Assembly (NCBI GenBank): GCA_049303155.1
Contig: JBAQMW010000339.1
Location: 1 to 49,238, forward strand
DNA from: Thermodesulfobacteriota bacterium
Lineage (GTDB): Bacteria > Desulfobacterota > GWC2-55-46 > DRQE01
Reading direction: 5' to 3'
Length of the DNA stretch: 49,238 nt
In this document: positions 11,522 to 45,708 of the stretch, one piece after another
Position numbering within the stretch: the first letter of the stretch is position 1
How the letters are laid out: the number at the start of each line of letters is the position of its first letter
Notes under the pieces: model-generated
Told to the model about the DNA's origin: nothing
The model's database searches: none
Seen by the model: only the letters and a program-made list of their open reading frames with translations
Position numbers and translations under genes: made by a program

Positions 11522-11610
11522 CAAGGACTGCGCCCTTGACCCTCAATGTTTTAATTTATGTGGAGGCATGCAGGCCACAGCGGTCTATTGATTCATTGTG
11601 CTGTCCGCAG
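11522..11610 (+). repeat. interspersed repeat family A, copy A1
   Basis: caaggactgcgcccttgaccc..aatgtttt..ggccac..ctattgattcattgtgctgtccgcag aligns with copies at 2185-2288(-), 44936-45022, 45476-45562 and 45562-45653. Confidence 0.8.
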
Positions 11611-11620
11611 GACAAATCCC

Positions 11621-12463: not shown

Positions 12464-12504
12464 TTTTATTCTCTTTTCTATAAATTCTACAATCTCGTCC
12501 CCCG

Positions 12505-12526
12505 ACCCACGCCGCTTGGCGTGGGT
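12505..12526 (-). repeat. family C palindrome core (acccacgcc-NNNN-ggcgtgggt), copy C1
   Basis: Perfect 9-bp stem with 4-nt loop. Reverse complement matches copies at 17235-17256 and 24444-24465. Confidence 0.85.
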
Positions 12527-12667
12527 ACCACGCTACCCTCTCCCCTTTGGGGAGAGGAAAATGAGACAAGGCAAACCCCCTTCCCTTGACTATACTCTTG
12601 AAATGAGTTTTACTTTAAAAGTCATGTTCCGTCAAAATGCCATAGGTGTCATGCTGAACCATGTTTT

Positions 12668-12763: not shown

Positions 12764-13834
12764 ATGGCGCGTCTATTGAAAACAAGGTCTAAGAAAAAAG
12801 GCCTTCCGCCCGGAACGCTCGTCCACATCGGGGAAAAGCGCGCCCAAGGGGCGAGCATCACAATCATTGATTATGACGAAACAAACGTCAGCGAATTAGA
12901 GATAAAAACCCTTGACCAGTGTTTTCCATTTAAGGAAAGCCCGACCGTTACATGGATAAACGTAGAGGGGCTCGACGCGAACGTAATACAGAAACTCGGC
13001 GACTGTTACGGCTTCCATCCCCTCGTGCTCGAAGACATCTTGAACACAGACCAGCGCCCAAAGATTGAAGACTACGGCGAATATATCTACATCGTAGTGA
13101 AGATGTTCAGCGAGAGGAAGGGAAGGAGCGGAATCGAGTTCTTTTCCGAGCAGGTCAGCATAATACTCGGAAAAAACTTCGTCATATCGTTTCAGGAAGG
13201 CGTAAAGGGAGACGTCTTTAACCACGTAAGGGAGCGGATAAGAAGCGGCAAGGGTAGGATAAGAAGCACGGGAGCGGATTATTTAGCCTACTCTCTCATG
13301 GACGCGATAGTTGATAATTACTTCGTGATACTCGAGGCCGTCGGAGAGAGGATAGAGGATATAGAAGACGAACTCGTCAGCCACCCGGCGCCGCACACGT
13401 TGAGAAACATACACGAACTCAAAAGAGAGATGATATACCTCAGAAAATCCGTATGGCCTTTGAGGGAGGTCGTAAGCTGGCTTGAGCGCGGCGGCTCTCC
13501 CCTTATAAAGCAGGCGACGGCCCTTTATTTAAGGGACGTTTACGACCACACGGTGCAGGTCATTGACGCGATAGAGACCTCGCGCGAGATGCTCTCAGGA
13601 ATGCTTGATATTTATATTTCGAGCCTCTCTAACCGCCTTAACGAGATAATGAAGTTCTTGACCATCATCGGCACGATATTCATCCCCCTTACCTTCGTCG
13701 TCGGAGTTTACGGAATGAACTTCGATATCATGCCCGAGCTTCGGTGGAAGTACGGATATTTTATCGTGCTTTTTGCGATGTTTTTAGTGTCGGTTTCCAT
13801 GCTCTTTTATTTCAGACGGAAGAAGTGGATTTGA
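12764..13834 (+). CDS. corA: magnesium/cobalt transporter CorA
   Basis: 356 aa. Cytoplasmic N-domain, two C-terminal TM helices with the signature YGMNF between them, basic tail RRKKWI. Confidence 0.92.
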   Translation: MARLLKTRSKKKGLPPGTLVHIGEKRAQGASITIIDYDETNVSELEIKTLDQCFPFKESPTVTWINVEGLDANVIQKLGDCYGFHPLVLEDILNTDQRPKIEDYGEYIYIVVKMFSERKGRSGIEFFSEQVSIILGKNFVISFQEGVKGDVFNHVRERIRSGKGRIRSTGADYLAYSLMDAIVDNYFVILEAVGERIEDIEDELVSHPAPHTLRNIHELKREMIYLRKSVWPLREVVSWLERGGSPLIKQATALYLRDVYDHTVQVIDAIETSREMLSGMLDIYISSLSNRLNEIMKFLTIIGTIFIPLTFVVGVYGMNFDIMPELRWKYGYFIVLFAMFLVSVSMLFYFRRKKWI

Positions 13835-13839
13835 GGGGG
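13751..13839 (+). repeat. direct repeat 1 (functional corA 3' end)
   Basis: About 88 nt repeated, with scattered substitutions, at 14592-14680. Confidence 0.85.
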
Positions 13840-13914: not shown

Positions 13915-14163
13915 ATGTCTACGCAAATGGTCATAAGAGTGGAGCCGGAGCTTAAGGAAAGGCTCAATAGGCTTGCCAGAGGAGAGGGCAAGACCACAAG
14001 CGAGATGGTGAGAGAGCTTCTCGAAAGTTACATCGAGGAGCATGATATCGGTTCTTATATCGACGACCTTTGGGGCAGGGTCGGCAAGAAACTCAAGGCC
14101 AAGGGGGTAACGCCCGGCGCCGTAAGCATGGCCGTAAAGGCCGCGCGAAAAGGCAAAAGATGA
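13915..14163 (+). CDS. ribbon-helix-helix (CopG-like) antitoxin
   Basis: 82 aa, VIRVEPELKERLNRLARGEGKTTSEMVRELLESYI is an RHH pattern. aaggagg SD. Paralog of 8742..8960. Confidence 0.85.
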   Translation: MSTQMVIRVEPELKERLNRLARGEGKTTSEMVRELLESYIEEHDIGSYIDDLWGRVGKKLKAKGVTPGAVSMAVKAARKGKR

Positions 14164-14564
14164 GGGTTGTGATAGACACCAACGTCTTTGTTTCGTCCTT
14201 TTTCGGCGGCAATCCCAAAAAAATCATAGACCTTTGGAGGAAAGAGAAGATAACTTTGTGTCTCTCCAAAGACATACTTGAGGAATACGTCGAGGTCTTG
14301 AGAAGAATCGGCCTCGAGGACGAAGAGGAGCTTTCCGAGCTTTTGAATCTTTTTTCAAAAGGGTTCAATATAGCCTTTACGGCAAAAACTCCGGAAATCA
14401 ATCTGGTCGAAGACGACCCGGACGACGACAAATTCATCGAATGCGCCGTCGCGTTAAAGGCAAAAGCGGTTATTACTGGGGATAAAGCGCTTGGAGCGGT
14501 AAAAGAGTATATGGGGATAAAGGTATTAAACCCGGCGCAGTTTTTGAGAAGTTTTACAGGGTGA
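14160..14564 (+). CDS. PIN-domain toxin (PIN_3 / TIGR00305-like)
   Basis: ATG at 14160 overlaps the antitoxin stop (ATGA). MRVVIDTNVFVSS, DDPDDDKFIECA, VITGDKAL. The listed start 14070 lies inside the antitoxin gene. Confidence 0.88.
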   Translation: MRVVIDTNVFVSSFFGGNPKKIIDLWRKEKITLCLSKDILEEYVEVLRRIGLEDEEELSELLNLFSKGFNIAFTAKTPEINLVEDDPDDDKFIECAVALKAKAVITGDKALGAVKEYMGIKVLNPAQFLRSFTG

Positions 14565-14591: not shown

Positions 14592-14675
14592 TACGGATAT
14601 TTTATCGTGATTTTGGGGATGCTTTTAGCGGCGGTTTCGATGCTCTTCTATTTCAGACGGAAGAAGTGGATATGA
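14592..14675 (+). pseudogene. orphan duplicate of the corA 3' end (last TM helix plus tail)
   Basis: Reads YGYFIVILGMLLAAVSMLFYFRRKKWI-stop; corA itself ends YGYFIVLFAMFLVSVSMLFYFRRKKWI-stop. No upstream coding continuity. Confidence 0.8.
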
Positions 14676-14705
14676 GGGGGGCGGGCGAAGTAATTTTTTA
14701 AACGA

Positions 14706-15734: not shown

Positions 15735-18617
15735 TTACTGCAACCTCAATCCCGTCTCGACTTCTTTTCCCTCTGCCCCGTATTTTATCTTTAGATTCCC
15801 GGCTTCGTCGGCTTTGAACGTTATGAGCACGTCTTCGTCCGTTACCTTGCCGAGAGGCAGGGTTATTATTTTAAAACCCTTGAATTCGACGTCTTCCGGA
15901 AGAGGGGTTTTGACGGTCTGCTTTATGAATTCCATGCCGGCCTCGCTCACCCATCTTCTTACGAGAAACGTTTCCGGAACCTCGAAAACCTCGAGATAGA
16001 GTTCATCCTGCGGCCCGAGGCACGAGGCAGGCCGCGCCCTGAAGGTCTTTTCCAGAGGAAGGGATTCTCCTTTTTCAAGCATTATCTCGTAGAAGTCTTT
16101 TTTCTCCTTGTCCTTCACAGCATAACGGAGGGCGTAGGCTATCGCGAGATGCCTGTCGGTAACGGCCTTTGTCCCGTAAAGCGCCGTGCCCTTTGCAACC
16201 GCGGAAAGGGGGCTGTGGTCGTAAACCGCGTTAAGTTTTCTGAGTTCCGGGAAAAGGGCCGTTATCTTGTCTTTGAAAGAGGGTATCTGCGAACTTCCGC
16301 CCGTAAGGAGCACCGCCTCGACCATGTCTTTTGTTACACCCAATTTTTTTGCCTTTTTGAAAACGTAGGATATCGCCCTGTCGATTGTCTCGTAGAATTC
16401 GTGAGACGCGAGCGTCGTTTCAAAATCCTCCCTTGTTACACGCACCTCTTTTCCGTCCCATTCGAATGGAACGGAGCGGTGTTCGGAGAGGGCTATCTTT
16501 ATGTCTTCGGCCTCGACCAAAACCTTCGGAGGTATCGCATCCTCCGAGAAGCCGAGCCTTTTAGCGAGATGAGAGGCGAGCCAAAAATCTATGTCCCTTC
16601 CTCCGAGCATGGTCGAGCGGTCGGGCTTGGCCACGACGTGCACCTCTTCGGTATTGAGCCTAAGCAACATCACGTCCAGCGTGCACCCGCCGAAGTCTAT
16701 GACGAGAGCGATCTTGTCTCTCTTTTCGGCTATCCGGTAGCCGATGGCCGCGGCAAGAGGCTCCTCCACGAAGTCTATTTCCACTCCGCGCGCCATGCCT
16801 TTGAAGATTCCGCCTATCGTCTTCCTGTAGGCTTGGAATCCGACCGGCACGGACACGCATATCTTGTCGGCGGGCTTGGCGGTCAGGATGGAAAGCCAGC
16901 CGGAGTGCGGCACAGAGCCTTTTATGTGGCGGTAGAGGGTCCTTAAATATCTTGCCATGTAATCCGCGCCTTTGGGGTCGTTCTCGAGGAGCATCTTCTT
17001 GATGTTAAGCGAAGACAGATGCTTGGCGTCCGCGCCGATACTTCCGGTATCGGGATGTATGTAGGTCGGCACGATGTAGGTGTCGCCGTATTTTTTGGAA
17101 AGCCCGTCAAGATAAACGAACTCCGGCTCCGCGTCCTCGTGCTTTCTCATTATGACGGTATTTGTCGCGCCGAGGTCTATGGCGATTGTTTCCTTTACCT
17201 GAGCCTTAATCCCCCCTGACCCCCCTTTCGGGGCACCCACGCCAAGTGGCGTGGGTCGGGGGGTAATCTTCGCGGTTTTTGAAACGTCTTTTTTCACGAT
17301 GTTGAAACGTTCTTCCTTGACGAATACAGGACGCTCTATCTCTTTACCGTGGAATTTGTCCTTCAGGGCCTCTATGCGTTCGGAAAGCTTTTTCAGCGTT
17401 TCCCTCAATTCGATTGGCCTTATCCAGACGTGGACGTAGGGCTTGAGGATTTCGAGAAGTCTCGCGTCGTTAAGGGCTTCCGAGAACTTTTCGAGTTCGG
17501 CTATGAAAAGATGCGCGTAGTTTTCTCTCGTGTAACGGCGTTTTTTGCTCTCGGTCATCTTCTTTTCTTCGGCAACGATGATGAAGTCAACTATTTCCAG
17601 CACCTCGACGTCCGCCATCCTGCTCTTTACCGAGAAAAACGGCAGGATTTCCTCTATCGTATTGACTATAAGGCCCATGAACTCGCGCGTCTTCGGAAGC
17701 TCCAGTAAAAGGTCTATGAGCGCGTAGGTCCTCGTGAACGGCTCTTTTATCGTAACCGCGGCCTTGAAGGAATCCGTTACGCAGCGCTCGTAAAACGGCA
17801 CGAACTCATCGGCCTTGGGCAGGCTCCGCGCCATGAAAAGCAAGGCGTATTTTCTGTAATAGGGTTCATCGAGGATGTTCGAGGCGCGGACGGCCACGTC
17901 AATCGCCTTCTTGTAGAGTTCGAGAAATTTTCCTTTTTTTGGCAGATTCGTCGCTATGCCCAGGAAGGTGTGGTTTTGGTAAAAAGTTATGTCGCAGGTC
18001 TTCGGAAGTTCTTTCGCAATCTCGGCGAGATTGAATTTTCTGTACGAGGGGTCTTCCGAAAGGCCAAGCGCCACCTCTATGGCGCGGAGAGCGAGGTGGT
18101 CGAAGCCGCCCCTCTTCTTGAGTTTTTCCGATATGTCGGAAAGGGAAAACCTGCGGTAGAATCTGTCGTCAATCTTGTCGGCCGCCTCCACGGCGCGTTC
18201 CATGGTTTTGCCGTAAACCGCCGAGAATTCTATTGCTTCGGGTATGTCTTCGGCGATGCGAAGGAGGGCGGACTTCCGGTGTTTCGCGTCCTCCATGAGC
18301 TCTAGAGCCTTGATAGCCGCCAGAATCGCGGCCATGTGCAGATCCGCGAATTCATCGGTCTTGGGAAGGATGTGGTTGAATTCGAGTATTCCGTTTTGCC
18401 GCTCTTCGGGTGTTTCCATCCGCTCAAGAATATCGAGGGCAATCTCGAAGGCCTTTATGCTTTCCTTGGACTGAGGAAGTTCGGAGAGGAGGCTCGTTAT
18501 CGCGATACTTTTGTTTTTCCGGTTCAAGCCCGATTCCGCGATGTCTTTGAGGCGTTCAATCGTCGAGTTCGACATATTTATACGGGCAACCGGCAGGGCT
18601 TGGCACTGCGCCGACAA
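15735..18617 (-). CDS. Hsp70/DnaK-family ATPase fused to an N-terminal approx 450-aa alpha-solenoid repeat domain
   Basis: C-terminal half: IAIDLGATNTV (phosphate-1), VIDFGGCTLDV (phosphate-2), LLTGGSSQIPSF (adenosine motif), then a beta-sandwich-like tail ITFKADEAGNLKIKYG. N-terminal half: eight approx 40-residue repeats marked by LPK/LPQ/IPE. The listed start is TTG at 18617; the ATG at 18575 is an alternative. Confidence 0.8.
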   Translation of the reverse strand: MSAQCQALPVARINMSNSTIERLKDIAESGLNRKNKSIAITSLLSELPQSKESIKAFEIALDILERMETPEERQNGILEFNHILPKTDEFADLHMAAILAAIKALELMEDAKHRKSALLRIAEDIPEAIEFSAVYGKTMERAVEAADKIDDRFYRRFSLSDISEKLKKRGGFDHLALRAIEVALGLSEDPSYRKFNLAEIAKELPKTCDITFYQNHTFLGIATNLPKKGKFLELYKKAIDVAVRASNILDEPYYRKYALLFMARSLPKADEFVPFYERCVTDSFKAAVTIKEPFTRTYALIDLLLELPKTREFMGLIVNTIEEILPFFSVKSRMADVEVLEIVDFIIVAEEKKMTESKKRRYTRENYAHLFIAELEKFSEALNDARLLEILKPYVHVWIRPIELRETLKKLSERIEALKDKFHGKEIERPVFVKEERFNIVKKDVSKTAKITPRPTPLGVGAPKGGSGGIKAQVKETIAIDLGATNTVIMRKHEDAEPEFVYLDGLSKKYGDTYIVPTYIHPDTGSIGADAKHLSSLNIKKMLLENDPKGADYMARYLRTLYRHIKGSVPHSGWLSILTAKPADKICVSVPVGFQAYRKTIGGIFKGMARGVEIDFVEEPLAAAIGYRIAEKRDKIALVIDFGGCTLDVMLLRLNTEEVHVVAKPDRSTMLGGRDIDFWLASHLAKRLGFSEDAIPPKVLVEAEDIKIALSEHRSVPFEWDGKEVRVTREDFETTLASHEFYETIDRAISYVFKKAKKLGVTKDMVEAVLLTGGSSQIPSFKDKITALFPELRKLNAVYDHSPLSAVAKGTALYGTKAVTDRHLAIAYALRYAVKDKEKKDFYEIMLEKGESLPLEKTFRARPASCLGPQDELYLEVFEVPETFLVRRWVSEAGMEFIKQTVKTPLPEDVEFKGFKIITLPLGKVTDEDVLITFKADEAGNLKIKYGAEGKEVETGLRLQ
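17208..17267 (+). repeat. family C palindromic element, copy C2, embedded in-frame in the Hsp70-like CDS
   Basis: 60 nt (20 codons) encoding [20 protein letters not shown] (residues 451-470). Core hairpin acccacgcc-aagt-ggcgtgggt at 17235-17256. Same element at 24427-24485. Confidence 0.85.
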
Positions 18618-18643
18618 TGTTTTATTTTTCTTTTCACTATATC

Positions 18644-18800
18644 GTAGCGCCTCCCTTTATAGAGCCTGCCCCCGCAGAGCTTGCCCCGGCAGGCAGTAAG
18701 CAGGGGCATTAAGCGGGGGGTTGCATCCTTGTTTTCAAAATGCAGGGACGACCCACTCTATGGAGCGGGTGCCCGCCCTGCCCTACGTTCATTGTGCCGG
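18644..18800 (+). repeat. interspersed repeat family B, copy B1
   Basis: gtagcgcctccctttatagagcctgcccccgca ... taagcggggggttgc ... gccctgccctacgttcattgtgccgg parallels 40561-40729. Its right end overlaps the last codons of the radical SAM gene. Confidence 0.8.
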
Positions 18801-19358
18801 CAACTTACTGAAGCCTGTTTCTACGACTACCCCGTCCTTTCCTATGTTTATTTCGATTTTGCCCGGCATTGAAAAGTCTTCGATGGAATACGCGTCGCTC
18901 AAAAAATGAAACGTCTGGTTCGAGGAACCCCGCGCGAGAAGGGTCTTTTCTTTTTTCGATTCCACGAACGGCCCGTCAATCAAAACGTCTGCGTATTCGA
19001 GGGCCTCAGGGGAAGGGATTTTATTTTTAAGTTCCTCTAACGTAAAGCCGGTGTAAACCACGGTCGTAAGATTCCTGCGTTCCTTGGCGATTTTTAAAAT
19101 CTCGGCAAGCCCCTTGGCCTGAAGAAACGGCTCGCCGCCGCTTATCGTCAGTCCCTCGATGCCGGTGGTAAGATGCCTTTCAAAGACCTCGTCCGCTTGG
19201 TAAAGCGCGGCAGTATCGAAAGAATGCGTCGCGTGGTTAAAGCACCCGGCGCAATTCCTGCCGCAGCCCTGAAAAAACACCACGAGTCTTTTGCCCGGAC
19301 CGTTTATTCTTGAGCAGGGTATTACGGCGTGTATATTGAGGGAAGTTTTCTTATTCAC
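18789..19358 (-). CDS. NrdG/PflA-type radical SAM activating enzyme (no cognate glycyl-radical enzyme nearby)
   Basis: 189 aa. NGPGKRLVVFFQGCGRNCAGCFN carries the CxxxCxxC cluster in the NrdG-type context; SGGEPFLQ SAM-binding motif. Confidence 0.8.
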   Translation of the reverse strand: MNKKTSLNIHAVIPCSRINGPGKRLVVFFQGCGRNCAGCFNHATHSFDTAALYQADEVFERHLTTGIEGLTISGGEPFLQAKGLAEILKIAKERRNLTTVVYTGFTLEELKNKIPSPEALEYADVLIDGPFVESKKEKTLLARGSSNQTFHFLSDAYSIEDFSMPGKIEINIGKDGVVVETGFSKLPAQ

Positions 19359-19536
19359 CTGTTTCTATCTTTATTCGCTCTGTGGTGTCGAGGCCGTCTT
19401 TTTCAACGAAGCGCTGTATCTTTCCGAGCGCTTTTTCGAGGTGCAGGGCGGTTTCCTTGCAGTCCTTGAAAACGCTTGAATCCACCTCTACCTTGCCGTC
19501 CGGTGTTATCCTTATCCTAATTTCTTTTCCCGCCAT
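19351..19536 (-). CDS. small protein, DUF2997-like
   Basis: 61 aa. IRIRITPDGKVEVDSSVFKDCKETALHLEKALG fits my memory of the DUF2997 pattern. Overlaps the downstream radical SAM gene by 8 nt. Confidence 0.65.
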   Translation of the reverse strand: MAGKEIRIRITPDGKVEVDSSVFKDCKETALHLEKALGKIQRFVEKDGLDTTERIKIETGE

Positions 19537-19539
19537 GGC

Positions 19540-19878
19540 CTATCCTTTCAAAAGAATGGTTATGCTGCCGGCCGATTCGGTCTCCTTCGCTATCTCGAAA
19601 TCGAGCGGCAGGTTTTCTTTAATGGACATGTAGGCATACATCTGAGTGAGGCGCTGGGTGAACGCGTTCACGACCCTCGCGTCCCCTTCGACCCGGACCG
19701 TCCCCTCTTTGGTCATGGAGACGTTCATTATATCTCCGCCGCGGTCCACCTTTATCGAATCTTTTTTTTCGATCTGTTCGTAGCGCGTTATCTCCCCTCT
19801 TTTCTTGAGTTCCTCGAGGGCCAATAATATGTAGTGCCTGTTTTTGAGTTCGGTTTTTATCTCGGTATAGTAGCTCAC
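19540..19878 (-). CDS. DUF1257 (Ycf35-like) protein
   Basis: 112 aa. GTG start with ggagg SD. N-terminus MSYYTEIKTELKNRHYILLALEEL resembles the DUF1257 signature MSHFT.IKT......L..AL..L. Ends 3 nt before the next gene. Confidence 0.7.
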   Translation of the reverse strand: MSYYTEIKTELKNRHYILLALEELKKRGEITRYEQIEKKDSIKVDRGGDIMNVSMTKEGTVRVEGDARVVNAFTQRLTQMYAYMSIKENLPLDFEIAKETESAGSITILLKG

Positions 19879-19932
19879 TTCGCCTCCGCCATTAATCCCT
19901 CCTAACCTCCCTTTAGAAAAGGGAGGAATCGT

Positions 19933-22083
19933 CTATTCGAGAGGGTTTGTCTTGAAAAATTCCGAAAGAGATTCGCCGCTCATCAAGACCTCCCCCATGA
20001 GCGCGTTCACGAGCTTAAGGAGGACTTCTTTATTTTTGGCGAGGAATTCCTCGCTCTCCTCCCTCGCGTTCGTGAGGATTTTCTGTATGTCGTCCAAAAC
20101 GTCTTTGCCGGAGGCTAGCGTATAATCCTGAAGCTGGATGAGGCTCGCGTTTTTCATTATCTCGCCGAACCCGTACTCGACGACCATCTTCTTCGCCTTT
20201 GCCGTGGCTTCGAGGAGGTCGTGCGACGCCCCGACGGTCTTGGAATCCTGTCCGTAGAGTTCGGTCTCGGCGCACATCCCTCCCAGGACGACGCCTATCT
20301 CCTTTTCAAGGTCTCTTTTGGTGAAGGTGTTTTTCATGGCCTCCTCGCGCGGGATAAAGGCGCTGAAGTCCTTGTAGTTGTCTATGCTCACGAACACAGG
20401 GATCTTGCCGAAGTGGTGCCGCATGAGGAGCGCGTGCCCCGCCTCGTGTATCGCAATGCTTCTTTTTTCTTTTTCCGTAAGGGTCTCTACGCGTTGGCGG
20501 AAAAGGGACTTCGACGCTGGCCTCGCGCGCTGGTGGCTCCAGTTGCGGAGTTCTTCTATCTCTTCTTTTTTAAGAACCGAAAGAGGCGTGATGTTTCTGA
20601 TGGAGCCCAAGATGCTCTCTTTCGTCAGGTTCAGGACGGAAAGTTCGTCTATCAGGGTTTCGGTTGTTTTGGCGTCCTTGCCTTCGTGTATGGCGTTAAA
20701 GGTCGTTACGATCGCGTCCTTTATGCCCTGCTCTATTTCGGCTCCGGTAAAGCCCTGCGTATTCTGGGCGAGTTCCTTAAGGTTGAAGGCGGTCGGGTCT
20801 TGCGACCTTCTTTCGAGGTGTATGCGGAATATCTCTTCCCTTTCGTCCGCGCTCGGCAGGTCAACGAAAAACACCTCGTCGTAACGGCCCTTTCTCCAGA
20901 GTTCCGGCGGGAGGTTTTTCGGCTCGTTCGCCGTGGCTATGACAAAGACCGGTTTTTCCTTGTCCTGAAGCCACGTGATAAAAGTCCCGAAAACCCTTAA
21001 TTGGGTTCCGGAATCTCCCTGAAAGCCCGTTACCCCTCCGAAGGCCTTGTCTATTTCGTCTATCCACATGATGCAGGGGCTTACGGCCTCGGCAAGCTGT
21101 ATGCAGCGGCGTATGTTCTTTTCGGATTCGCCGACCGTGGAGCCGAAGAGCCTTCCGACGTCCATCCTGAGGAGCGGCAGGTTCCATATTCCGGCCAGGG
21201 CCTTGCAACAGAGGCTTTTGCCGCTTCCCGGCACCCCTATGAGGAGAAGCCCCTTGGGTATTTCAAGCCCCAAGACGCTTATCTTGTCCCTGCTCAGCCT
21301 GAAGACGTGCTCCCTGTCTATGAACCATTTTTTTATTTCGTCAAGGCCGCCTATGTTGTCTATGGTTTCCCTGTGCGGGTAGTAGTCGAGGATCTTCTGT
21401 TTTTTTATTATCTGCTGTTTTTCGTCCTGTATGTCCTTGATGCAGTCCTCGTTTAAAACGCCTTTATTGATGCTTATGGCCTTTCTTACGACCCTTCTGA
21501 TGTTATCGAGAGAAAGCCCCTGAAGCGACTGGAAGAGGATGGTTCGCGTGGAAGAGTGCCACGTCTTAGGGATAAGGTGGCCGTAGGTGGAGGCGACCAT
21601 CTCTTCTATCTCGTCGTAGTCCGGAAGGGCAAGCTCCAATACCACGATGTCTTCTTCGAGTTCGGGCGGAATCTCGCTTAAGGTCGGAGAGAGGATGCAT
21701 ACGGTCGAGACGGAGCGCTGCTGCTCGTCTATTATGGCGGGCAGGTCGCGGAATTTTCTCAGGAATTCGTGGGAGGCGAAATATCCGGCAACGTCCTTAA
21801 GAAGAAACAGGTTAGAGGCGTCTTCGCTTTTTTGGATTTTTTCTTCTATCGCGGTAAGTATCTTTTCGCGGCCTATGGGTTCTTTTTTCTTTTTGTCGCT
21901 CGAATAAAGTCCCCTTGAGACCGACCAACACCAGTAGTTAGCGCCGATGTCCTTGCAGAGGTTTTCGAGGATTTTTTCAACCCTCCGTTCCTCAAAGGAC
22001 ACGAGCCAGAGGATAGGGTACCTCGCCTCTATGTGTATCTTGATTTCTTTTTCAAAATCCGCGGTATTCATATTTTGTCTCAT
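19933..22083 (-). CDS. soluble AAA+ ATPase with Ycf46-type N-domain fused to an M41 (FtsH-like) zinc peptidase domain
   Basis: 716 aa. Walker A GVPGSGKS (nt 21214-21237), Walker B IMWIDEID, HEAGH (nt 20434-20448), downstream GASHDLLEAT as in FtsH GAsnD. No hydrophobic TM segment. Confidence 0.85.
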   Translation of the reverse strand: MRQNMNTADFEKEIKIHIEARYPILWLVSFEERRVEKILENLCKDIGANYWCWSVSRGLYSSDKKKKEPIGREKILTAIEEKIQKSEDASNLFLLKDVAGYFASHEFLRKFRDLPAIIDEQQRSVSTVCILSPTLSEIPPELEEDIVVLELALPDYDEIEEMVASTYGHLIPKTWHSSTRTILFQSLQGLSLDNIRRVVRKAISINKGVLNEDCIKDIQDEKQQIIKKQKILDYYPHRETIDNIGGLDEIKKWFIDREHVFRLSRDKISVLGLEIPKGLLLIGVPGSGKSLCCKALAGIWNLPLLRMDVGRLFGSTVGESEKNIRRCIQLAEAVSPCIMWIDEIDKAFGGVTGFQGDSGTQLRVFGTFITWLQDKEKPVFVIATANEPKNLPPELWRKGRYDEVFFVDLPSADEREEIFRIHLERRSQDPTAFNLKELAQNTQGFTGAEIEQGIKDAIVTTFNAIHEGKDAKTTETLIDELSVLNLTKESILGSIRNITPLSVLKKEEIEELRNWSHQRARPASKSLFRQRVETLTEKEKRSIAIHEAGHALLMRHHFGKIPVFVSIDNYKDFSAFIPREEAMKNTFTKRDLEKEIGVVLGGMCAETELYGQDSKTVGASHDLLEATAKAKKMVVEYGFGEIMKNASLIQLQDYTLASGKDVLDDIQKILTNAREESEEFLAKNKEVLLKLVNALMGEVLMSGESLSEFFKTNPLE

Positions 22084-22150
22084 TATAGCACAACATTATT
22101 TCCGTATGCAAATCTTACGGAAAGCAGGGGTAATTTAATAGAATTAGTTT

Positions 22151-22200
22151 GTCATTCCCGAGGTTCGGGACACCCATGCGAAGCATGGGTCGGGGAATCC
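22151..22200. repeat. family D/C hybrid palindrome
   Basis: gtcattcccg..cacccatgc-gaa-gcatgggtcggggaatcc. Its inner hairpin is a compensated variant of the family C core. Confidence 0.7.
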
Positions 22201-22231
22201 AAGCGGTTTTTTCTTTCAAAGACAAATACAT

Positions 22232-22336
22232 GGATTCCCGCTCAACCCAGCACCACTTTATGTTACGAGCGTAAGTTATATGAAAAAAACGTTAGTGCCG
22301 TAAAGTGGTGCTGGGCAAAAGATTGCGGGAATGACA
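22232..22336. repeat. MITE-like palindromic element
   Basis: Termini ggattcccgc / gcgggaatgaca. Perfect 15-bp inner inverted repeat cccagcaccacttta (22246-22260) / taaagtggtgctggg (22301-22315) around a 40-nt loop. Confidence 0.8.
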
Positions 22337-22401
22337 GACTGGGAAGACCGTGGGAATGACAGAATTGTCAAAATACACTGTTCAGTTTCTGAACAAAGCG
22401 C

Positions 22402-22431
22402 TTGACATGACCTTTTGAAAAGTGGTATGTT
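22402..22431 (+). promoter_or_regulatory. putative extended -10 promoter of the regulator gene (possibly a leaderless mRNA)
   Basis: TTGACA (22402-22407), 18-nt spacer containing TG, TATGTT (22426-22431). The ATG at 22438 is only 6 nt downstream and has no SD. Confidence 0.4.
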
Positions 22432-22437
22432 CATAGT

Positions 22438-24419: not shown

Positions 24420-26885
<2,466 letters not shown>

Positions 26886-42653: not shown

Positions 42654-44372
42654 TTAGCAGTAAAGGGTGTTCCTGCAGGAAAGCACCTGCTTTTCTCGCG
42701 TGCCGCTTCTGTAAATCGTAACGCCTTTGCATCCTAATTCATAGGCGAGGAGATAGGCCTTTCTGACGTCGTCTTCGGTCGCATCAAAAGGCAGGTTTAT
42801 CGTTTTCGACACGGCGTTGTCAGTGTGTTTTTGAAACGCGGCCTGCACTTTTATGTGGTCTTCCGGGGATATATCGAAAGACGTGGAGAAGATTTTTTTG
42901 AATTTTTCCGGCACGTCATTTCTTTTTTTTATGTCCCCTCCCCTTTCTATGTATTTCATGAGGTCTTTACTGAAAAATCCCTCCTCTTTCGAGACCTCCT
43001 CAAAAATAGGGTTTAGTTCCGGCAGTTCCGTGCCCTCTAAAACCTGACGCGTGAAGCTTAACGAGTAAAAAGGCTCTATGCCGGAAGAACATCCCGCTAT
43101 GAGGCTTAAGGTGCCGGTTGGGGCTATGGTCGTTACGGTGGAGTTTCTTATGGGTTTCTTGAGCACGCTTTTTTTGATATTGGGAAAAGCCCCTCTTTCT
43201 TTCGCGAGTTCGATCGAGGCCTCATGGCCGGTTTTATTTATAAAACTCATGATGTCTTCCGTGATCTTTAGGCTTTCCTTGCTTCCGTAAACCATCCGAA
43301 GGCGCGCCAGCATGTCGGCAAAACCCATTACTCCGAGTCCGATTTTTCTATTCCCCTTTGCCATGCGCTCTATTTCAGGGACAGGGTATTTATTCACGTC
43401 TATTACGTTATCGAGAAACCTGACGCCTGTTTTTACGGTCTTTTCTAATTTGTCGTAATTAATTTTCCAACCCGTGCCGGTTTTTTTGAGCATCCTGCCC
43501 AAGTTTATGGAGCCCAAGTTGCACGGCTCGTAAGGAAGGAGCGGTTGCTCGCCGCAGGGGTTCGTGGCCTCTATGGCTCCGAGTTTGGGAGTAGGATTTT
43601 TTTCGTTGACCCTGTCCATGAATATTACCCCCGGTTCTCCGCTTTGCCACGCGCATCTTATGATGAGGCCGAAGATTTTTTTCGCGCTCTCGCGTCTTAC
43701 TATCGTTCCGTCCCTCGGGTTCACGAGCGGGAAATGCGAGTTTTTTGCAAGGGCCTTCATGAACTCATTTGTTATTGCCACCGAGAGGTTGAAGTTCAGA
43801 AATTCTTCCGGGTTTTTCTTGGCCTCTATGAACTCTATTATGTCAGGGTGGTCTATGCGTAAGACCCCCATGTTCGCGCCGCGCCTCGCGCCGCCTTGTT
43901 TAATGGCTTCGGTCGCCGCGTTAAAAACCCTCATAAAGGAGACAGGGCCGCTCGCGAGGCCACCCGTCGAGCCGACGATGTCGTTCGAGGGCCGGAGCCT
44001 CGAGAACGAAAAGCCGGTGCCGCCGCCTGATTGGTGTATTATGGCCGTGTTTTTAACGGCCTCGAATATGGATTCTATTGAGTCTTCGACAGGCAGGACA
44101 AAGCACGCGGCGAGCTGGCCGAGTCTAAGCCCGGCGTTCATGAGGGTCGGAGAGTTGGGGAGGAATTCGAGCCTTGTCATGAGGTCCAAGAATTCCCCTT
44201 CGGTTTTTTTTGCGTTAACGCCTTTTTTGTAAAGTTTTTCGGCTGAGGCGACGCTTTTCGCCACCCTCGCAAACATCTCTTCCGGGGTTTCTGAAACCCT
44301 GCCGAACCGGTTCTTTCTGAGGTATCTTTTTTGAAGGACAATGACGGCGTTCGGAGTCAAGGAGGGTTTCAC
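42654..44372 (-). CDS. nrdJ: adenosylcobalamin-dependent (class II) ribonucleotide reductase, short form
   Basis: NPCGEQPLLPYEPCNLGSINL active-site region, SGGGTGFSFS, C-terminal Cys pair (VLSCRNTLYC). Confidence 0.88.
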   Translation of the reverse strand: MKPSLTPNAVIVLQKRYLRKNRFGRVSETPEEMFARVAKSVASAEKLYKKGVNAKKTEGEFLDLMTRLEFLPNSPTLMNAGLRLGQLAACFVLPVEDSIESIFEAVKNTAIIHQSGGGTGFSFSRLRPSNDIVGSTGGLASGPVSFMRVFNAATEAIKQGGARRGANMGVLRIDHPDIIEFIEAKKNPEEFLNFNLSVAITNEFMKALAKNSHFPLVNPRDGTIVRRESAKKIFGLIIRCAWQSGEPGVIFMDRVNEKNPTPKLGAIEATNPCGEQPLLPYEPCNLGSINLGRMLKKTGTGWKINYDKLEKTVKTGVRFLDNVIDVNKYPVPEIERMAKGNRKIGLGVMGFADMLARLRMVYGSKESLKITEDIMSFINKTGHEASIELAKERGAFPNIKKSVLKKPIRNSTVTTIAPTGTLSLIAGCSSGIEPFYSLSFTRQVLEGTELPELNPIFEEVSKEEGFFSKDLMKYIERGGDIKKRNDVPEKFKKIFSTSFDISPEDHIKVQAAFQKHTDNAVSKTINLPFDATEDDVRKAYLLAYELGCKGVTIYRSGTREKQVLSCRNTLYC

Positions 44373-44884
44373 TTTATCTCCACTACCGCTTCACCCGGCG
44401 ACACCCTTTTCGGAGGCACAGGGGTTTCGTCCGCATAACCGATAGGAGTTATTACGACAGGCATCAGGTTATCCGGCAGTTTCAAGGCAGCCGAGACCTC
44501 GTCTTCGTCGAAGGCCCCCACCCATACGCTTCCGAGCCCGATGGAGTGGGCGAGGAGCATCATGTTCTGGATGCTGCAGGAGACGTCCTGAATGGCGTAG
44601 AGATGAGCCCCGCGCTCCATGTAGTGGCGTCTTATGGTCATGTCCGCGCACCCGACTACGACGAGAGGGGCTTCTCTGATGAAATCCTGGTCAAGCGCGG
44701 CCAAAACGAGCTTTTCCTTTATTTTGTTGTTATAAATGAAATAAAACCGCCTTTTTTGCAGGTTCCCCGCGCTCGGCGCCCAGATAAGGGCTTCTTTGAG
44801 AAGTTCTATCTTGGAGGATTCCACCGGAGAATTCTTAAATCTCCTTATGGACCTTCTTTCTTTTATGGCCTGAAGGACTTCCAT
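44369..44884 (-). CDS. nitroreductase-family flavoprotein
   Basis: 171 aa. KERRSIRRF N-terminus, PSAGNLQ. Its stop overlaps the nrdJ start by 4 nt. Confidence 0.8.
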   Translation of the reverse strand: MEVLQAIKERRSIRRFKNSPVESSKIELLKEALIWAPSAGNLQKRRFYFIYNNKIKEKLVLAALDQDFIREAPLVVVGCADMTIRRHYMERGAHLYAIQDVSCSIQNMMLLAHSIGLGSVWVGAFDEDEVSAALKLPDNLMPVVITPIGYADETPVPPKRVSPGEAVVEIK

Positions 44885-44935: not shown

Positions 44936-45022
44936 CAAGGGCTGAGCCCTTGACCCGCAATGCTTGAATTCGCGTTGTGGTATGCGTACCATCGTGGCCT
45001 ATTGATTCATCGTGCCGTGCGG
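44936..45022 (+). repeat. interspersed repeat family A, copy A2
   Basis: caagggctgagcccttgacccgcaatgcttgaatt..ggtatgcgtaccatcgtggcctattgattcatcgtgccgtgcgg. Confidence 0.85.
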
Positions 45023-45026
45023 ATGC

Positions 45027-45060
45027 AAAAAAAAGGGCGGGCCTTTGGCCCGCCCTTTTT
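45027..45060 (-). terminator. rho-independent terminator of trxA (symmetrical, A-run / T-run on both sides)
   Basis: 9-bp GC stem gggcgggcc / ggcccgccc with a short loop. Read on the minus strand it is followed by a run of eight T. Lies 21 nt past the trxA stop. Confidence 0.8.
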
Positions 45061-45475: not shown

Positions 45476-45562
45476 CAAGGGCTGAGCCCTTGACCCATAA
45501 TGTTTCAACTTGCACTTGGGTATGCACGCCATAGTGGCCTATTTATTCATTGTGCCGTCCGC
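45476..45562 (+). repeat. interspersed repeat family A, copy A3
   Basis: caagggctgagcccttgacccataatgtttcaacttgcac..ggtatgcacgccatagtggcctatttattcattgtgccgtccgc. Confidence 0.85.
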
Positions 45563-45653
45563 AAGGACAGGGGCGACCCTGCACCCATAATATTTCAACT
45601 TGCCCCCATGCCATGCGCACCATTGGAGCTTAGCAATTCACTTCGCCGTCCGC
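45562..45653 (+). repeat. interspersed repeat family A, copy A4 (tandem to A3, more diverged)
   Basis: caaggacaggggcgaccctgcacccataatatttcaacttgccc...cacttcgccgtccgc. Shares its boundary ccgtccgcaagg with A3. Confidence 0.75.
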
Positions 45654-45708
45654 AAGAGTTGTATTTTATCTTGACACAAGGCCGTCAATGCGTGCAATAT
45701 ATTATTAT

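Follow-up and report, generated by a model that had tools for sequence, protein, structure and literature searches.

We have analysed a stretch of 49,238 bp (the window), which is a contig of a metagenome-assembled genome (MAG) of a Thermodesulfobacteriota bacterium (locus tags WA162_*), and describe here an operon of five minus-strand genes within it. They code for a soluble AAA+ protease (gene 1, 19933-22083, an open reading frame (ORF) of 716 amino acids (aa)), a divergent DUF1257 (Ycf35-like) protein (gene 2, 19540-19878, 112 aa), a DUF2997 protein (gene 3, 19351-19536, 61 aa), an NrdG/PflA-type radical S-adenosylmethionine (radical-SAM) protein (gene 4, 18789-19358, 189 aa) and an Hsp70-like ATPase with a helical-repeat region (gene 5, 15735-18575, 946 aa). 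Comparison of sequences and gene orders argues strongly that the five genes form a single functional and strictly conserved operon, because their linkage survives the complete loss of flanking synteny, and this operon is best described as a lineage-specific, protease-fused variant of a widespread Ycf46-DUF1257-DUF2997 module that occurs with or without Hsp70/GrpE and with or without a Fer4_12 radical-SAM protein. The most likely interpretation, to which we give an even chance, is that it encodes a cytosolic, chaperone-assisted machine for regulated proteolysis, that is, the protease-fused form of a Ycf46-DUF1257-DUF2997 stress module.

The linkage of the genes was followed by scanning one genome per species with a profile of the gene-2 family, which gave 79 loci, and by a tblastn census of gene order. 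All of these loci come from uncultured MAGs labelled Deltaproteobacteria, Thermodesulfobacteriota or Nitrospirota, and the order and strand of genes 1 to 5 are kept in every species-representative locus long enough to hold the set (48/48), with median gaps between successive genes of 12, 27, 26 and 2 nt. Around the operon little is kept: the upstream MarR gene was found in 4/42 and the UDP-glucose dehydrogenase gene in 5/42 of the relatives with room for them, the window's downstream genes recur in 0-1 of 46 loci, and what flanks the operon in relatives is ordinary (BipA, DEAD helicase, AhpC, glycosyltransferases). A link of the operon to the neighbouring exopolysaccharide genes or to the MarR regulator was considered and rejected on the same counts. 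A relative with a 78%-identical gene 1 carries a 949-aa Hsp70-like gene directly after the radical-SAM gene, and an Hsp70-like gene also follows the radical-SAM gene in the most divergent gene-2 relatives, despite quite different flanks. Gene 1 is 69-81% identical across relatives, and such high conservation would fit a core function in this lineage.

A preliminary description of this DNA had drawn a self-contained unit of four genes and had mentioned a 'fused Hsp70-like gene' only as context. Its coordinates, its 54-nt gap between genes 1 and 2, 3-nt gap between genes 2 and 3 and 8-nt overlap between genes 3 and 4, and its motifs were all correct, and the linkage that it proposed proved to be real and conserved in other genomes. 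However, the unit has five genes and not four, as gene 5 always lies directly downstream of gene 4, at a median distance of 2 nt. The earlier stop at four genes was probably due to the spacer between genes 4 and 5 (18576-18788, ∼210 nt), which measures a few nt in relatives and is swollen in the window by interspersed repeat copies. The same description had judged the context to be accessory rather than housekeeping, which is difficult to maintain for an operon that is present in every testable relative, has metabolic flanks and a well-conserved gene 1, and whose gene-2 family was not found among the viral contigs of IMG/VR. A viral origin was rejected on this last result as well; Ycf46 proper has one viral-contig relative. 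As for variation among the loci, the MAG Nitrospirae bacterium RBG_16_43_11 contains two copies of the operon, in one of which (L074) the radical-SAM gene is matched over residues 18-80 only and is possibly degraded, while that of the other (L081) is intact, and in L053, L060 and L077 genes 3 and 4 are separated by an additional 1.2-2.6 kb of DNA.

Gene 1 consists of a Ycf46-type N-domain (residues ∼1-250), a classic AAA module with its lid and an M41 zinc peptidase, recognized by Pfam as AAA (279-408), AAA_lid_3 and Peptidase_M41 (534-704). Both its ATPase and its zinc peptidase look active, because none of 67 homologues departs from the Walker A and Walker B motifs, from HEAGH (H546, E547, H550) or from the Asp of GASHD (D622). 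Translation probably begins at the second ATG (22071), as homologues are 711-712 aa long and the 716-aa form is not on record. No transmembrane segment was found in any of the five proteins; in gene 1 hydropathy averaged over 19 residues peaks at the Walker A strand, and the other hydrophobic stretches are only core beta-strands. Residues 4-530 are 33-39% identical, full-length, to ∼500-aa AAA ATPases on plasmids of cyanobacteria, Bacillota, Actinomycetota and one spirochaete, the N+AAA part shows 38-41% identity to 19 Ycf46-family proteins, including 'YCF46 [Stanieria]' and the Synechocystis sp. PCC 7338 protein, and the N-domain alone is 30% identical over 241 aa (E 3e-27) to a Synechocystis Ycf46-family protein. 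Gene 1 has in common with this family the N-domain (∼250 aa) and the single classic AAA domain, homologous over the full length, and also the neighbourhood with DUF1257 and DUF2997, but Ycf46 proteins are of ∼500 aa and end after the AAA lid, whereas gene 1 goes on with an extra M41 domain of ∼190 aa. No plasmid homologue carries an M41 domain or covers at least 80% of the query, and among the sequences examined, which included no systematic search for such fusions elsewhere, the N-AAA-M41 fusion was seen only in this MAG group. The view of gene 1 as an FtsH-like AAA+/M41 protein without transmembrane segments and with an N-domain of the Ycf46 kind, already put forward in the preliminary description, is in agreement with the Pfam domains, the hydropathy and the identity to Ycf46.

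Judged by these features, gene 1 is not FtsH itself, given that it has no membrane anchor, that it reaches 176.7 on the FtsH equivalog model TIGR01241 (cut-off 600) and that its AAA module is nearer in sequence to D2 of Cdc48/VAT (E 1e-54) than to FtsH (E 1e-40). In the AlphaFold2 (AF2) model (pLDDT 68, pTM 0.37) the N-domain (pLDDT 75-86) has an alpha/beta core and a helical bundle, and Foldseek aligns the model with the cytosolic region of FtsH (E 1e-18, ∼485 columns) and with D1+D2 of Cdc48 (∼570 columns). The model suggests that the N-domain is an AAA-like ring without a P-loop.

Gene 2 gave no match to Pfam even at E≤10, and neither did a 113-aa representative of its family, which is very narrow (two or three 50%-identity clusters among 1.84 billion representatives). 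The only other full-length matches of the family profile among 1.84 billion proteins were proteins of 122-136 aa with E 1e-5 to 1e-3, and those scanned (9/9) are bona fide DUF1257 (PF06868), scoring 39-91 bits against a cut-off of 22.2. When the family was aligned with DUF1257 by hhalign, they matched end to end (99.3% probability, E 8e-21, 110 columns; the score is somewhat inflated by the DUF1257 set having been selected by the query profile) and shared the motifs MSxxT.IKT, QxYAY and G.I.L. The assignment of gene 2 to DUF1257 that had been proposed is supported by this profile-profile comparison and by the nine distant relatives, although the Pfam threshold is not passed, and we classify gene 2 as a divergent DUF1257; its AF2 model has a pLDDT of 89.8. 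The case of gene 3 is similar, as its score on DUF2997 (PF11211) falls just under the gathering cut-off (23.4 versus 24.1 bits), whereas 30/37 members of its family match at E≤0.01 (best 4.4e-6). Furthermore, its invariant G14, C26 and G38 are the same residues as in PGAP-annotated DUF2997 proteins, and 18 of its 61 positions are conserved at ≥90%, spread across the first 46 residues as in a folded domain. Thus, the earlier placement of gene 3 in DUF2997 can be upheld at the level of the family.

In the case of gene 4, Pfam recognizes a Fer4_12 domain (E 7e-36), the best solved relative is the pyruvate formate-lyase (PFL) activating enzyme 3c8f, and the motifs CxxxCxGC (the CxxxCxxC cluster), GGEP (SAM) and GSSNQ are invariant in the family. 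The best NCBIfam match is the NrdG equivalog model, but neither this model (TIGR02491, 117.8 against a cut-off of 126.1) nor PRK11121 (84.8 against 199) reaches its cut-off, and the name given by NCBI is '4Fe-4S single cluster domain-containing protein'. In addition, gene 4 has a conserved C-terminal extension of ∼40 aa past GSxNQ, while the one true NrdG that could be fully aligned stops six residues past the motif. When gene 4 is compared with the plasmid collection, its matches to true NrdG genes, most of which are directly beside NrdD or overlap it, are confined to residues 4-148. Those that extend over the full length (residues 6-183) are to unnamed Fer4_12 proteins that all share the extension, the best of them adjoining AAA ATPases without NrdD. 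No NrdD is adjacent to gene 4 in the window or in 86 related loci, according to gene order and Pfam lists. Outside the lineage, 12 of the 13 contexts of gene-4-like radical-SAM genes are beside an AAA+ unfoldase, and NrdD or PFL was never adjacent. In seven of the 13 a Ycf46-type AAA lies at a distance of up to ∼2.5 kb (Paenibacillus, Paenarthrobacter, Rhodococcus, B. cereus, Treponema, a Gemmataceae MAG and a 198-kb viral contig), and in four, all of them proteobacterial plasmids (Polaromonas, Moellerella, Leisingera, Acinetobacter), a Clp-type AAA_2 ATPase overlaps the radical-SAM gene; the Calothrix context consists of Hsp70, a TPR protein, the radical-SAM gene and a two-domain AAA, and that of Kovacikia has none of these partners. 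The unfoldases belong to two clades (Ycf46-type and Clp-type AAA_2), and at least five phyla are represented. From these gene neighbourhoods, the constant partner of the subfamily is a protein unfoldase and no glycyl-radical enzyme. Gene 4 can accordingly be placed in a distinct and coherent activase-like subfamily; the preliminary assignment to the NrdG/PflA-type activases holds for the motifs, but not for the sub-threshold NrdG score or the extension, and gene 4 goes with these neighbours rather than with an adjacent NrdD, both in the 48 lineage loci and in other phyla. Finally, a hairpin in the C-terminal extension (MPGKIEINIGKDGVVVE) resembles the N-terminal hairpin of DUF2997 (AGKEIRIRITPDGKVEV; hhalign 83.8%, P 8e-6, 17 columns), and this likeness, which is too short for homology, could mean that the two hairpins use one docking site or that recognition works through paired strands.

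Gene 5 is composed of an alpha-helical repeat region (residues ∼1-460), an Hsp70/actin-fold ATPase domain (∼465-830) and a C-terminal domain of ∼120 aa. The Pfam HSP70 match (E 1e-19) covers profile positions 166-372, and no Pfam match was obtained in the N-terminal 460 aa or the C-terminal 155 aa. The phosphate-1, phosphate-2 and adenosine motifs (IDLGATNT, DFGGCTLD and LTGGSSQIP) are conserved, while the conservation profile indicates that the repeat arm evolves fast. The curated scores of HscA (84 versus 620) and DnaK (56 versus 648) are not reached, and a canonical Hsp70 substrate-binding domain with its lid was not found in gene 5, which is 26-27% identical to the Ycf46-partner Hsp70s of a Chloroflexota MAG and a Pseudanabaena plasmid. 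In the window it contains a 21-aa in-frame insertion (aa 438-458) in the linker before the Hsp70 domain, which none of the 61 homologues has, not even the one with 86% identity; within it, a 39-nt palindromic interspersed repeat (17223-17261) is in frame, with other copies at 24432-24470 and, inverted, at 12499-12532 (repeat family D13/I4/I5).

Related modules in other phyla were studied in a census of ∼20 hand-inspected loci. On the plasmid pPPM1a of Paenibacillus polymyxa M1, the AAA, DUF1257, DUF2997 and radical-SAM genes PPM_RS27220-27235 follow one another as they do in the window, separated by 43, 5 and 6 nt. GrpE-like, Hsp70, DUF1257, DUF2997 and Ycf46 genes form one cluster in Synechocystis sp. 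PCC 7338, and a Pseudanabaena plasmid has Ycf46 with DUF1257, DUF2997, Hsp70 and GrpE plus an ABC-type ATPase and a WD40 protein. A Chloroflexota MAG combines Ycf46, WD40, HEAT/WD40 and Hsp70, and a Gemmataceae MAG has DUF2997, a Fer4_12 radical-SAM protein, Ycf46 and DUF1257. The Ycf46-family proteins of cyanobacteria and of Gemmataceae, Anaerolineae/Chloroflexota, Nitrospirota and Armatimonadota MAGs are mutually 73-79% identical, an unusual degree of identity for a functionally uncharacterized protein found in several phyla. The Synechocystis operon to which ycf46 (slr0374) belongs is reported to respond to many kinds of stress with strong induction, and to have no known function (PMC7496141), and a DUF2997-DUF1257-fed7 cluster has been listed for cyanobacteria (PMC4284462). 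In searches of the literature on DUF1257/DUF2997, Ycf46 with radical SAM, and NrdG-like proteins, we found neither this system nor the associations with radical-SAM, Hsp70 or M41 described.

Other relatives were observed on mobile elements. On the plasmid pTRESU01 of Treponema succinifaciens (61913-64068, L090), a gene-4-like radical-SAM gene is beside a Ycf46-type AAA that is 39% identical to gene 1, and around the pair are VgrG/Pvc8-family and baseplate genes that belong to a contractile injection system. The proteobacterial plasmids with the Clp-type ATPase (L093, L094, L103 and L104; hosts Polaromonas, Moellerella, Leisingera and Acinetobacter) carry a five-gene module coding for a very large AAA-domain protein, a PIN_4 protein of ∼800 aa, a ∼370-aa protein, the Clp-type AAA_2 and the Fer4_12 radical-SAM protein; that of Moellerella adjoins ArdA and an integrase, and that of Acinetobacter a kinase and radical-SAM pair. 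This module looks like an undescribed conflict system. In ∼35 phage records, mainly cluster O mycobacteriophages (e.g. Corndog gp96), we have found a full-length Ycf46-type AAA that is 30% identical over 97% of the N+AAA part, and among six neighbours scanned in cluster O phages none was recognisable as DUF1257, DUF2997 or radical-SAM.

In the proteolysis machine that we propose, gene 1 would form a stacked hexamer with three tiers (AAA-like N-ring, active AAA ring, M41 zinc-peptidase chamber) and would thread selected soluble proteins into this chamber, given that the fusion of a motor with a protease implies the threading of polypeptides into a degradation chamber. Gene 5, with its Hsp70-like ATPase, would take up substrates and pass them on, and the capturing would be done by its variable helical-repeat arm, as fast evolution is what would be expected of a client-binding surface. 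By analogy, the DUF1257 and DUF2997 proteins may be obligatory small partners (adaptors or regulators) that bind the Ycf46-type N-domain. Gene 4 would abstract a hydrogen atom from the backbone or a side chain of a partner or substrate handled by the machine, and would have no part in the activation of ribonucleotide reductase (RNR). In support of the machine, the catalytic motifs of AAA, M41, radical-SAM and Hsp70 are invariant or nearly so. What the comparisons show directly is the domain content, these intact motifs, the lack of membrane segments, the strict linkage of the five genes and the return of the same components in other phyla; the hexameric three-tier architecture, the way in which substrates would flow, the role of the small proteins as adaptors and all that is said of the radical-SAM target are inferred.

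Several points weigh against this interpretation. The role of the radical-SAM enzyme within the machine is a guess, the confidence of the gene 1 model is only moderate, and the gene 2 model has no fold match in the PDB at E<0.001; neither DUF1257 nor DUF2997 has a solved or recognisable fold, 'adaptor' being a term chosen by analogy. No conserved RVxG[FWY]-like glycyl-radical motif was seen in the operon partners of gene 4. We have also considered G65 of gene 2 as a glycyl-radical site and rejected it: G65-D66 is invariant in the family, but the radical-SAM-linked DUF1257 of Paenibacillus has Ala, and some radical-SAM-free members have Gly, so there is no co-variation. Furthermore, plasmid and viral relatives sit among PIN, ABC-ATPase, WD40/TPR and contractile-injection genes, a context that is more conflict-like than proteostasis-like. 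A further proposal, which we regard as possible but doubtful, is that the NrdG-like proteins with the C-terminal extension are an unrecognised class of glycyl-radical-type activases partnered by an AAA+ unfoldase, which would feed a stretch of polypeptide to the radical-SAM site, where it would undergo either radical modification or a backbone cleavage triggered by oxygen. If this were true, the operon would be a proteolytic, Hsp70-assisted 'radical-tagging and degradation' machine, and the plasmid, phage and contractile-injection versions would put identical chemistry to use in conflict.

It seems to us unlikely that the operon is instead an anti-phage or conflict system, with the AAA+/M41 or the radical-SAM protein as effector against invader or host proteins and the Hsp70-repeat protein as sensor. 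The AAA domain of gene 1 does match the PADLOC IetA models (E 1e-32) and NCBIfam IteA, but what PADLOC matches is only the generic AAA domain and there is no IetS-type partner; genes 2 and 3 have no PADLOC match, and those of gene 4 (pVip, on the radical-SAM core) and gene 5 (PDC-M61B) are weak. A conflict function would agree with the related modules on plasmids of Bacillota, Actinomycetota, Cyanobacteriota and Spirochaetota and on the 198-kb viral contig, where ABC/AbiEii-type ATPases, WD40 and TPR proteins, PIN nucleases, contractile-injection genes and the kinase and radical-SAM pair of Acinetobacter are the neighbours, and also with the fast-evolving arm of gene 5 and with a PIN-domain ORF 1.2 kb from the operon. 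However, defence genes are patchy and have a fast turnover, whereas no testable species representative in this lineage lacks the operon or departs from its gene order, gene 1 has the level of identity given above, the neighbours are ordinary genes and the gene-2 family was not found in IMG/VR. Therefore, of the stress or conflict (defence) role suggested in the preliminary description, defence is unsupported in this lineage, where the operon is universal and slow-evolving, although its mobile relatives do look conflict-related.

Two other possibilities concern the radical-SAM gene. That gene 4 is a plain NrdG for a class III RNR encoded elsewhere, merely co-transcribed with a protease/chaperone operon, is improbable in our view. 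Such an enzyme would account for NrdG being the best NCBIfam match, with a score near the cut-off, and for the invariant CxxxCxGC, GGEP and GSSNQ motifs, which are typical of NrdG, but the score remains under the curated cut-off, the NCBI name is another one, and the true NrdG genes, mostly beside NrdD, match partially, whereas the full-length matches carry the extension and adjoin AAA ATPases without NrdD. Moreover, the adjacency to AAA/DUF2997 is also seen in strict aerobes (Paenarthrobacter, Rhodococcus), the linkage holds in 48/48 loci while the flanks vary, and the window encodes an RNR of class I/II type, so the organism has an RNR that needs no NrdG. Even less credible, and in fact very improbable, is a cluster resembling those of ribosomally synthesized and post-translationally modified peptides (RiPPs), in which gene 3 would be a precursor modified by the radical-SAM protein and trimmed by M41. 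A small ORF with an invariant Cys and two Gly immediately upstream of the radical-SAM gene, and overlapping it, in an operon with a protease, is what such a cluster would show, and the hairpin of gene 4 that resembles one of DUF2997 could be a recognition element. Nevertheless, gene 4 has no SPASM, twitch or RiPP recognition element match, a transporter or immunity gene is absent, gene 3 is conserved as a folded domain and has no leader/core pattern, DUF2997 occurs with Ycf46 and DUF1257 where the radical-SAM gene is absent, and the radical-SAM subfamily occurs also without DUF2997.

With regard to the rest of the window, its six ORFs of at least 550 aa code for an MCP, MetH, the class I/II-type RNR, a TPR protein, gene 1 and gene 5, and judged from these six there is no glycyl-radical enzyme in the window, as the preliminary description had said. 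The RNR (42654-44372, minus strand, 572 aa) was assigned by Ribonuc_red_lgC (E 2e-136), and the ORF just upstream of it (44369-44884) is a nitroreductase-family protein and not NrdR. The promoter of the operon is presumably in the intergenic region 22084-22437, between gene 1 and the divergent MarR-type gene, which contains three copies of GGGAATGACA and a 27-bp hairpin; no sigma-70-like site was found on the minus strand within this region, the whole scan being no richer than its shuffles, and terminator and promoter scans were uninformative. There are five exact copies of GGGAATGACA in the window and six with one mismatch, against 2.15 expected by chance; the exact ones (12667, 15662, 22150, 22327 and 22352) are all intergenic, and the element looks like a genome-wide REP-type (repetitive extragenic palindromic) element. 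Its copies bracket the five-gene unit, with 15662 on one side and 22150-22361 on the other. The repeats said to bracket the four-gene block are therefore upstream in the case of the 22150-22361 copies, but the block at 18644-18800 (repeat family D18, with a hairpin at 18653-18705) is inside the operon, between genes 4 and 5.

Of the toxin-antitoxin-like neighbours mentioned previously, a single one could be confirmed, the PIN-domain ORF at 14070-14564. The last 89 nt of corA (13751-13839) are repeated 841 nt downstream (14592-14680) with 90% identity, and the two copies flank this ORF, as if a PIN cassette had been inserted at the 3' end of corA with target duplication. Besides, interspersed elements of ∼95 nt occur at 11522-11616, 44936-45030 and 45476-45570 (74% identity between copies), with partial copies at 45577-45656 and, inverted, at 2062-2306; they could be MITE-like repeats or small-RNA genes.

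Plastids, cyanobacteria and many bacterial phyla share Ycf46, Ycf35/DUF1257 and DUF2997 as conserved proteins, about which the variant described here offers two clues. The fused M41 chamber indicates that the Ycf46-type motor threads polypeptides, and the fixed NrdG-like gene, with unfoldases in 12 of the 13 outside contexts, points to radical chemistry on proteins. The two clues together lead to testable hypotheses for a long-standing family of unknowns, and related versions are available in culturable carriers such as Paenibacillus polymyxa M1 (pPPM1a) and Synechocystis.

Several known systems can be compared with this operon. Like FtsH, gene 1 has an AAA module followed by M41 with HExxH and a downstream Asp ligand, but in place of the N-terminal transmembrane helices and periplasmic domain it has the 250-aa Ycf46-type N-domain. 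Gene 4 resembles the NrdG/PflA activases in its small size, its N-terminal CxxxCxGC, GGEP and GSSNQ, and differs from them in its sub-cut-off NrdG score, its ∼40-aa C-terminal extension and the absence of an adjacent NrdD or PFL in the loci examined. The Pvc15/Afp15 AAA ATPases of extracellular contractile injection systems, in which an N part and a deficient D1 precede an active D2 in Pvc15 (PMC11495950), are comparable in architecture to the N-part and active AAA of gene 1; however, Pvc15 has no protease domain, and no tail, sheath or baseplate genes are near the operon. In IetAS an AAA ATPase (IetA) is likewise paired with a protease function (IetS), but the match of gene 1 is to the AAA domain only and far under the cut-off (102 against 510 on NCBIfam IteA), IetS is absent, the protease here is a fused M41 metalloprotease and not a separate serine protease, and the rest of the operon has no counterpart there. 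In its set of genes the operon resembles the cyanobacterial and plastid Ycf46 (slr0374) stress operon, which shares an N+AAA part homologous over its full length, the DUF1257-then-DUF2997 pair and an Hsp70-family partner in the cluster. In comparison with it, the C-terminal M41, the fixed Fer4_12 radical-SAM gene and the AAA-first order are found only here, Hsp70 is fused to a long helical-repeat arm, GrpE is absent and DUF1257 is so divergent that Pfam misses it. The Ycf46/DUF1257/DUF2997 neighbourhood was already known from annotation and from cyanobacterial expression studies; what is new here is the M41 fusion, an activase-like radical-SAM gene as a constant member and a repeat arm built into the Hsp70.

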